Positions 54,029 to 55,606 of a stretch of DNA of 64,000 nt are shown here, piece after piece. Numbering within the stretch: position 1 is the stretch's first letter; each line of letters begins with the position of its first letter. The DNA is from Escherichia coli. Its GTDB lineage: Bacteria; Pseudomonadota; Gammaproteobacteria; Enterobacterales; Enterobacteriaceae. The DNA lies in NCBI RefSeq assembly GCF_002854065.1, contig NZ_CP024147.1; one strand, 5' to 3'. Both the position numbers and the translations under genes were made by a program. The notes beneath the pieces are model-generated. The model did no database searches. It saw nothing but the letters and a program-made list of their open reading frames with translations, and was not told where the DNA came from.

Positions 54029-55606
54029 TTATCCTCGTTTTTCCCAAAACTGTTTTGCCAGTTCGCTCAGAGCGCTAGTTAACTGAGCGACAGATTTCGC
54101 ACTTTGCAAATTATTCTGCCCGGTCTGTACATTGGTATCAGCAGCATCGCGTATATTGATAATACTGCGGTTTATGTCTTCACTTACTGCTCCCTGCTGC
54201 TCGACCGCAGTCGCTATTTGCGCGTTCATGTCGGTAATTTCGTTAACGCGTTGGCCAATTCCATCAAGAGCTGTAGCTGCTTCCTCTGCGTGAGCTACAC
54301 TCGTGTGCGCTTGCCGACTACTTTGCTCCATGACTGTAACAGCGGATTGCGCTCGCTCTTGTAGAGCGCTGATCATGCTTTGAATATCCGTTGTCGATTG
54401 CTGTGTGCGAGCAGCAAGACTGCGAACCTCATCGGCGACAACAGCAAAACCACGCCCCTGCTCACCAGCACGCGCGGCCTCAATTGCTGCGTTGAGTGCC
54501 AACAAATTCGTTTGCTCGGCGATCCCTCGTATAACGTCAAGAACTTTTGATATCTCGTTACTTTGACCTTCAAGCTCATGAATAACCTGAGTGGCTTGCC
54601 TAATTTCACCTTCAAGGGCAGTGATTGACTGGCTTGTGTGGGCTACCAGACGCTGGCCAGATGCCGTCTCAGTGTCTGCTCTTCCGGCCGCATCTGCAGC
54701 ATGCTGTGCATTGCTCGCAACCTCTTGAATGCTTGCCACCATTTGGTTTACTGCCGTTGCTATTTGATCTGTCTCTGCCTGCTGCTCAACTGTAAGTACA
54801 TTGCTTGACTCAATATCCTTTAGTAGGCCTCGGGTGTGTTCGCTAAGCCGATTTGATGCATCACCTATGCGACCTACTATGGCGCCTGTTTCAGCTTGCA
54901 TCATTCGTAAAGCAAACTCTATTTGGCCAAACTCATCGGTGCGCCCAGTGTAGAGGGATTGACTTAATGGGTTATTGGAAATATTCCTGGCTCTTTCAAC
55001 CAGTCTTCCAAGAGGAGAGAGAATAGCCAAAACACTAACAGAGCTTAAGCTTCCTGACATTAAAGTGGCTAACAATAAGCTGCTTATTGATGTATCAGTA
55101 AGCATGCCGGCAGCCATTGCGCTTGATATAATACTACCCCATATGAGCAAGAGTATTTTCACGGAAAAGCTAGCAGCCAATTTCGGCCTCGCGGCCTTCC
55201 CGCTTCTCAATTGAGCATATAATTTTTCCGCAGCCAAAACCTGCTCAGGTTCAGGCTTGGTCCTTACAGACTGGTATTCAACAATCGAACCATTCTTAGC
55301 TATTGGCGTTACATAAGCACTTACCCAATAGTGGTCGCCATTTTTACAGCGATTTTTTACTAGCCCCATCCATGAGCGGCCAGATTTTAATGTACTCCAC
55401 ATATGCTCAAATGCAGCAGGCGGCATATCTGGGTGTCTTACGATGTTGTGAGGCTGGCCTAATAGTTCTTCCTCAGTGAAACCACTGATTTTAATGAAGT
55501 CAGGATTAACGTACGTGATATGGCTTTGAGGGGAGGTAGTCGAAAGAATATTGGCATCTTTTGGGAGTTCTAAGTTTCGACCCGTCACTGGTAAATTCTG
55601 GCGCAT
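54029..55606 (-). CDS. Aer-like PAS-domain methyl-accepting chemotaxis protein (transposon passenger gene)
   Basis: 525-aa ORF. N-terminal PAS region (…[50 protein letters not shown]…) resembles E. coli Aer as I recall it; central hydrophobic hairpin; C-terminal MCP signalling domain (…[34 protein letters not shown]…). Confidence 0.85.

Follow-up and report, generated by a model that had tools for sequence, protein, structure and literature searches.

The 64,000-nucleotide stretch of Escherichia coli DNA analysed here (contig NZ_CP024147.1 of assembly GCF_002854065.1, called the window below) carries a copy of the Tn3-family transposon Tn1722 and, within it, a gene named mcp for a chemoreceptor resembling the energy-taxis receptor Aer. 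The element spans 5,640 bp and is bounded by 38-bp terminal inverted repeats (IRs) that match at 35 of 38 positions, and the only genes that it contains are mcp, tnpR and tnpA.

53840–53877, no strand: IRL, 38-bp terminal inverted repeat of Tn1722 (GGGGGAACCGCAGAATTCGGAAAAAATCGTACGCTAAG), pairing with 59442–59479 at 35/38 positions
54029–55606, minus strand: mcp (orfI of Tn1721), Aer-like chemoreceptor of the 40-heptad (40H) class, 525 amino acids (aa); open reading frame (ORF), Pfam and alignments
55916–56476, plus strand: tnpR, 186-aa serine resolvase; ORF, NCBIfam serine-recombinase match, 'recombinase family protein' in plasmid annotation
56480–59446, plus strand: tnpA, intact 988-aa Tn3-family transposase; NCBIfam NF033527, 1287 bits over the full profile
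59442–59479, no strand: IRR, 38-bp terminal inverted repeat; repeat search

We read mcp as the cargo of a complete Tn1722 recently inserted into the E. coli chromosome, and as a self-contained cassette that encodes an Aer-type energy-taxis receptor. To this reading as a whole we give a probability of about 0.8.

The identity of the element follows from its plasmid counterparts. It is 99.9–100% identical to plasmid records whose annotation reads Tn1721 or TnAs1-family transposase, and LC623892 annotates the matching tnpA as 'Tn1721 transposase'. One plasmid record holds a complete Tn1721 in the order mcp-tnpR-tnpA-tetR-tetA-pecM-tnpA', where the same 1,578-bp gene is called 'methyl-accepting chemotaxis protein' (MCP). 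Nearly identical to Tn1721 but lacking the tet part, the window element is therefore Tn1722, the 'minor transposon' that constitutes the Tn1721 core, and this copy is complete and apparently competent for transposition. The first-pass annotation, made from the sequence alone, had described mcp as the sole non-transposition gene of a Tn3-family element and as the MCP-like ORF of Tn1721. Both statements hold, since nothing besides tnpR and tnpA accompanies mcp and the same gene sits in the same element in near-identical plasmid copies. The gene is already known and does not constitute a new system: the description of orfI/mcp of Tn1721-Tn1722 is attributed to Allmeier, Cresnar, Greck & Schmitt (1992, Gene 111:11; GenBank X61367), and current annotation pipelines name the product 'PAS domain-containing methyl-accepting chemotaxis protein'.

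The reading frame of mcp begins with ATG and is intact and free of frameshifts over its 525 codons, and its product matches, at 100% identity, a cluster of 2,579 protein sequences. Homologues down to 76% identity have in common the N-terminus MRQN(L/F)PVTGR and the C-terminal ...FWEKR motif; because such diverged homologues share both termini, the start and stop are taken to be the biological ones. Annotated forms of 544 and 552 aa were rejected as reflecting the true start, the conserved start being M1. These forms stem from upstream variants devoid of an in-frame stop that the window copy has 24 codons 5' of its ATG (55607–55690, minus strand). Tn1721-like copies vary in the region 5' of mcp, which overlaps the putative sigma-28 promoter described below. 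From its N-terminus, the protein comprises the following parts.

55265–55516, minus strand: PAS domain, residues 31–114, with Aer-type contact residues for flavin adenine dinucleotide (FAD); Pfam PAS_3 4e-17, PDB 8DIK 9e-41
55013–55165, minus strand: membrane hairpin, about residues 148–198, two hydrophobic segments; Kyte-Doolittle scan
54890–55027, minus strand: HAMP domain, residues 194–239, with a canonical P...DEFG motif; Pfam HAMP 4.5e-7
54149–54634, minus strand: MCP signalling domain, residues 325–486, tip glutamate E382; Pfam MCPsignal 7e-44

In the hydropathy scan the two hydrophobic segments cover residues ~148–170 and ~174–198 and are separated by the four residues 'TDTS', a spacing that gives a membrane hairpin without a periplasmic domain. 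The PAS domain, membrane hairpin and complete MCP signalling domain recognised at first reading are thus all present, with HAMP added by Pfam, and no hidden frameshift was found. That reading had also likened the PAS domain to the FAD-binding PAS of Aer, and the alignment agrees. Aer of E. coli K-12 (b3072) aligns from residue 7 to residue 7 and without a gap through the PAS domain, with 64/120 identical positions (53%) over residues 7–126 and 33% identity overall. Against the PDB, full-length Aer ranks first (3e-65), followed by the crystal structure of the Aer PAS domain, 8DIK (9e-41, residues 9–133); the next PAS matches are to flavin-binding MmoS, NifL and LOV domains. In 8DIK (2022; PMC9668731), the FAD contacts are H53, stacked on the isoalloxazine ring; N85, with hydrogen bonds to O4 and N3; R115, close to N5; R57, at the phosphate; and M69 and W70, at the adenine. 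These six residues are identical at the matching positions of the Tn1722 receptor, as are the genetically defined H58 and D60 and, in addition, Y93 and Y111. Judged from the sequence, FAD binding by the Tn1722 receptor is well supported.

That the PAS domain might sense something other than redox state through FAD, whether a small-molecule ligand or, in the manner of Aer2-type receptors, oxygen via haem, appears highly improbable to us. PAS domains are versatile, Pfam assigns this one to generic PAS families only, and D68 of Aer has become a histidine; yet all six FAD contacts are retained, FAD-binding Aer and other flavin-binding proteins head the PDB ranking, and the Vibrio Aer2 model covers residues 193–518, which is the signalling domain and not PAS. 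In NCBIfam, no Aer equivalog was reached by the receptor, and the best model, Pseudomonas aeruginosa CtpM, stays far under its cut-off and covers the signalling half only.

The signalling half assigns the receptor to a length class. Two 14-residue insertions relative to Tsr lie in the cytoplasmic domain, one in each hairpin arm, and 143 residues follow the tip glutamate E382 as against 125 in Aer; therefore each arm comprises 20 heptads, and the receptor is of the 40H and not the 36-heptad (36H) class. Two further results agree with this class: CtpM is the best NCBIfam model, and the signalling half aligns with Pseudomonas putida PcaY at zero net gap, a 1-residue insertion being compensated by a 1-residue deletion. 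According to Booth et al. (bioRxiv 10.1101/081455), the Aer proteins of Pseudomonas all belong to the 40H class, and that of E. coli to the 36H class. The receptor is accordingly not an E. coli-type Aer but a 40H Aer of the Pseudomonas/Oceanospirillales type. A CheR-binding pentapeptide was looked for at the C-terminus, which ends in ...FWEKRG, and was not found; the strict methylation consensus [ASTG]2-x2-[EQ]2-x2-[ASTG]2 has 0 matches in the receptor, 0 in Aer and 4 in Tsr. Adaptation is therefore probably independent of methylation, as in Aer, while an EQQ aligned to methylation site 1 of Tsr persists and could still allow some methylation.

Whether such a receptor would work with the E. 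coli chemotaxis proteins can be approached from two sides. Its CheW/CheA-binding tip is identical to that of Tsr at 33 of 41 positions, which makes physical contact with the E. coli Che proteins plausible, and the Tn1722 MCP is reported to disturb chemotaxis when overexpressed (Allmeier 1992, as cited in PMC5756416), an effect that implies such contact. However, arrays are reported not to mix 36H with 40H receptors (Herrera Seitz 2014, as cited in PMC5907407), and P. putida 40H receptors placed in E. coli gave weak responses and localised poorly to the poles (bioRxiv 10.1101/339275). The receptor could thus plausibly couple to the Che pathway of E. coli, though probably with low efficiency in this host.

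Base composition distinguishes mcp from the transposition genes. The GC content is 47.5% in mcp (41% at third codon positions, GC3), 65.6% in tnpR (GC3 86%) and 65.9% in tnpA (GC3 88%). It reaches 45% in the spacer from IRL to the stop codon, 46.6% in the spacer between mcp and tnpR, and 48.2% in the window minus the element. The first-pass impression of a mosaic element, with mcp closer in composition to the host (~50% GC) than to the GC-rich tnpR-tnpA module, survives measurement. The agreement with E. coli is nevertheless a coincidence, because the closest relatives of mcp are found not among enterobacteria but in marine and Pseudomonas-like gammaproteobacteria, as well as on other transposons. 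The borders of the low-GC part were drawn with a Tn7-like element bearing a 91% identical allele (L091; Logan ERR15087765 contig, 1–7600). In blastn, homology between the two elements is confined to 53892–55665, from 59 nt 5' of the ATG to 137 nt past the stop, and ends 14 bp short of IRL; the L091 contig has a GC content of 48%, like the cassette. These limits define the captured unit.

53892–55665, minus strand: low-GC 'aer cassette' comprising promoter, mcp coding sequence and 3' untranslated region; 90% nucleotide identity with the Tn7-like element L091
55666–55915, no strand: intergenic region between cassette and tnpR, presumed res site and tnpR promoter region, across which GC climbs; fine GC scan

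The res site would lie in this interval by the usual organisation of Tn3-family elements.

Among species representatives, the closest relatives of the receptor belong to Pseudomonas neustonica (71%), Marinomonas balearica (64%) and a gammaproteobacterial metagenome-assembled genome (61%), and many Pseudomonas and Stutzerimonas representatives follow at 52–58% identity, with many Pseudomonas species at 55–58%. Three relatives of 72%, 76% and 81% identity in chromosomal-looking contexts (the set L009, L010 and L093) adjoin GGDEF-EAL genes, a neighbourhood described for Pseudomonas Aer.g2 and Aer.g3 (Booth et al., bioRxiv 10.1101/081455), and one 69% relative has a different chromosomal-looking context. 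The closest Pseudomonas group may be Aer.g2. A 78% homologue (L092, 5181–12640) occupies an odd location for a chemoreceptor, between a SCPU-domain gene and PapD chaperone/usher fimbrial genes.

Transposon or chromosome context was sampled for nine homologue clusters only, and several of these place mcp on other transposition systems. An 89% identical allele (L002) lies in an element collinear with Tn1722, with ~77% nucleotide identity over tnpA, tnpR and mcp and, at the protein level, 86% identity in tnpR and 59–78% in tnpA. The same allele recurs in L003 beside a tnpR that is 84% identical to that of Tn1722 and a transposase that is only 21% identical. One mcp allele and a similar tnpR thus accompany two transposases, which implies an exchange point between tnpR and tnpA, not in res. 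Over tnpR-res-mcp, L003 and L002 share ~93% nucleotide identity, and their transposases are ~22% identical to each other. A hybrid Tn3-family transposon described independently (PMC6713103) combines an MCP gene and an IRL end like that of TnAs1 with a different tnp module, the junction lying at res.

More distant backbones carry the gene as well. A 77% allele (L006) belongs to a 6.9-kb Tn3-family element with 117-bp terminal IRs and a tnpA that is 30% identical to that of Tn1722. This element, also seen in L007, occupies 1037–7919 of contig JACWGQ010000002.1 (GCA_017693575.1) within a tra (TraF/TraH/TraG) region, and it encodes a 309-aa resolvase, an RHH/PIN toxin-antitoxin pair, a 997-aa transposase, mcp and a 61-aa ORF. 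In L091, the 91% allele is found directly 3' of tnsC-tnsD-tnsE. The promoter and 3' untranslated borders of the L091 cassette are as in Tn1722, its receptor has a 6-aa duplication in the second membrane segment, and its tns module is 93% identical to a cassette-less one on a Klebsiella pneumoniae plasmid.

The cassette appears to bring its own expression signals.

55641–55667, minus strand: predicted sigma-28 (FliA)-like promoter, TCAAGAAA-N11-GCCGAAAA, beginning 61 nt 5' of the ATG; conserved in alleles
53978–54009, minus strand: terminator-like hairpin, 10-bp stem followed by UUUU, 20 nt past the mcp stop; fold of -14.5 kcal/mol, z = -2.2

For sigma-28, which serves class 3 flagellar/chemotaxis promoters, the consensus used was TAAA-N15-GCCGATAA, and as positive controls the scan recovers the K-12 aer and tsr promoters. 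The tsr promoter reads TAAAGTTT-N11-GCCGAAAA, with a -10 box identical to that of the window. Both boxes are kept in the other alleles, as TAAAGAAA-N11-GCCGATAT in L002, TTAAGAAA-N11-GCCGATTA in L006 and TAAAGAAA-N10-GCCGAAAA in L091; the N11 spacing is retained in all but L091, and the spacer sequence varies. Among distant chromosomal homologues, the motif occurs at most 200 nt upstream in 14/72, compared with 4/72 in the antisense control. From this conservation we infer both the function of the mcp promoter and its dependence on sigma-28. Consensus scans of 53700–56000 for sigma-70 promoters and terminators returned counts not above shuffled expectation. The terminator scan misses the hairpin because its loop exceeds 8 nt, and a sigma-70-like site at 55810–55838 (plus strand; 10/12 match) is of a kind no commoner than chance.

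The alleles also differ in a manner that points to selection. Between the window and the 89% allele of L002, dN is 0.061 and dS 1.17 (dN/dS 0.05); between the window and the Tn7-borne allele of L091, the values are 0.036 and 0.30 (dN/dS 0.12). Only such closer pairs were used, since dS is saturated at 77% aa identity or less and the Nei-Gojobori method fails. Ratios of 0.05–0.12 indicate purifying selection across mobile lineages. The PAS domain and the kinase-control module are best conserved between alleles and the membrane hairpin least.

The recurrence of the alleles and the selection acting on them suggest a mobile behavioural module rather than an accidental cargo. How far this can be taken is less clear-cut. 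A sigma-28-wired module that unrelated transposition systems captured repeatedly (three Tn3-family backbones, with transposases only 21–78% identical to one another, and one Tn7-like element), that was selected while mobile and that forms a separate 40H sensory channel beside the E. coli array is an idea that we regard as doubtful. Still less probable, to our mind, is a cassette that benefits its mobile elements, for example by steering motile hosts to energy-rich, crowded and transfer-prone niches, a benefit that would account for its retention by several unrelated transposons. The presence of 77–91% identical alleles in four transposition backbones (Tn1722-like, hybrid, 6.9-kb Tn3-family and Tn7-like), the strength of purifying selection even between transposon-borne alleles and the conserved promoter elements would all fit such a benefit. 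On the other hand, the purifying selection may date mainly from a chromosomal phase followed by independent captures, nine homologue clusters are a small base for judging enrichment on transposons, and the decay of mcp in enterobacterial plasmids indicates that the transposon spreads well without it. Should the module reading be true, transposons would be spreading an energy-taxis trait among motile gammaproteobacteria.

The distribution of mcp bears directly on its role in enterobacteria. Of 5,426 complete E. coli genomes, 1,030 (about 19%) contain the segment from IRL through mcp to res, at 1,211 plasmid and 268 chromosomal places, and tblastn detects mcp in 2,513 of 72,556 plasmids, where nearly all copies represent the single Tn1721 allele.

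Several of our observations weigh against the reading of mcp as an Aer-type energy-taxis cassette. Only 472 of the 1,030 matching E. coli genomes retain 80% or more of the segment, and 1,451 of the 2,513 mcp plasmids reach a coverage of at least 80%. Klebsiella, which is non-motile, accounts for 1,355 plasmid records, over half. With truncation so frequent and Klebsiella so prominent, enterobacteria appear to carry mcp as a hitch-hiker without selection for it. The mismatch between the 36H and 40H classes speaks against efficient entry of the receptor into E. coli arrays. In the FAD pocket, there is the replacement of D68 by histidine, and the pocket residue 'T27' of PMC9668731 cannot be mapped, K-12 Aer having Q27. 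The sigma-28-like motif deviates from the consensus at 2 positions, and the window contains motifs of such quality at a background of 0.28 per kb on each strand. The terminator hairpin is weak, with a z of -2.2 and 4 U only. As for the numbering of the pocket, the threonines near position 27 of K-12 Aer are T23 and T24.

One alternative is that the gene is inert in its E. coli host, unexpressed or unable to join 36H arrays and simply carried along. We treat this as a serious contender, although on balance we do not favour it. The reported separation of the two classes and the poor performance of P. putida 40H receptors in E. coli would be expected if it were so, as would the very common truncated copies in E. 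coli and on plasmids, with most plasmid copies in Klebsiella. Against it, the window carries an undamaged copy of the majority allele, the -10 element of its promoter is that of E. coli tsr, the tip shares 33 of its 41 residues with Tsr, and the overexpression phenotype implies contact with Che proteins.

If mcp does encode an Aer-type energy-taxis receptor, as we propose, the cytoplasmic N-terminal PAS domain would bind FAD and report the redox state of the respiratory chain, and the membrane hairpin would anchor the receptor without any periplasmic sensor. The PAS signal would pass through the canonical HAMP domain to the 40-heptad kinase-control module, whose conserved hairpin tip would bind CheW and CheA. 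The receptor should perform best where the host builds 40H (F6-type) arrays, for example in Pseudomonas, Aeromonas, Vibrio or Shewanella. In E. coli with its 36H arrays, the gene would be expressed with the flagellar regulon, and the receptor would probably form separate or poorly coupled complexes, giving at most a weak additional energy taxis or some interference with chemotaxis. In non-motile Klebsiella, the receptor gene would be dead weight riding with the transposon.

The chromosomal surroundings of the element indicate when and how it arrived.

53834–53839, no strand: left target-site duplication TGTATT, repeated at 59480–59485; single in the empty site
59480–59485, no strand: right target-site duplication TGTATT; empty-site comparison

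At the one empty site inspected, in E. coli CUWW06, TGTATT occurs once, compared with one copy on each side of the element in the window, so that the target duplication measures 6 bp. Tn3-family elements usually duplicate 5 bp, and the copy in the window therefore departs from what is expected of Tn1721/Tn1722. The deviation is minor and leaves the identification of the element unaffected. The target is an AT-rich intergenic site on the E. coli chromosome, where the order is hipBA, an ECSE_1600-family autotransporter gene, the transposon and lsrK-lsrR-lsrA. The empty site was found in 4,055 of the 5,426 complete E. coli genomes, none of which shares the Tn1722 junction of the window. An unshared junction, together with intact tnpA, tnpR and IRs, argues for a recent, strain-specific transposition.

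The same neighbourhood contains two IS1 copies that are 100% identical (52454–53221 and 37528–38297). The first, flanked by a 9-bp duplication (AACCGTCCC), splits the ECSE_1600-family autotransporter gene into ORFs 47549–52420 and 53195–53746. A P1-like phage-plasmid context was considered and rejected, as the phage matches of the flank are due to IS1 only and the succession hipBA-autotransporter-lsrKR is chromosomal. An Rfam scan of 52000–60500 returned only an isrL match that, at 18.5 bits, stays below the gathering score of 35 and that we deem due to chance.

By hitch-hiking with Tn1721/Tn1722, mcp has come to rank among the chemoreceptor genes most widely spread in enterobacteria of clinical and environmental origin, and its function has barely been studied since 1992. 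Our search of the literature retrieved no paper that pairs 'Tn1721' with 'aerotaxis'. A 2013 study by Borziak et al. reportedly deals with horizontally acquired chemoreceptors on E. coli and Shigella plasmids, and it may already describe this receptor. What is added here to the known gene consists of incremental refinements: the 40H class, the FAD contacts viewed against the 2022 structure, the borders of the cassette, the conserved sigma-28-like promoter, the recurrence on four transposition backbones with purifying selection, the 6-bp duplication and the unique chromosomal insertion.

Compared with known systems, the element agrees with Tn1721-Tn1722 orfI/mcp in its gene order mcp, tnpR, tnpA and in its 38-bp IRs, and it differs in being the tet-less 5.6-kb form, in its chromosomal location and in its 6-bp duplication. 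The receptor and E. coli Aer have in common the cytoplasmic N-terminal PAS domain, the membrane hairpin, the HAMP domain and the kinase-control module, and neither possesses an NWETF pentapeptide or strict methylation motifs. Aer is of the 36H class, however, whereas the 40H Tn1722 receptor has two extra heptads per arm, and the two proteins are not orthologues. The P. putida receptors McpT and PcaY are likewise 40H proteins in a 36H host when studied in E. coli (bioRxiv 10.1101/339275), but they have periplasmic ligand-binding domains and were expressed artificially, whereas the Tn1722 receptor senses from the cytoplasm and arrives naturally by transposon. The Pseudomonas Aer family (groups Aer.g1-g5, bioRxiv 10.1101/081455) shares with it the 40H class, a similar length (about 521–526 aa), the canonical HAMP motif P...DEXG and a short C-terminal extension past heptad 20, of 3 residues here. 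The Pseudomonas genes reside at a conserved chromosomal locus, whereas the Tn1722 gene is borne by a transposon and, with its GC content of 47.5%, lies well under what is typical of Pseudomonas.

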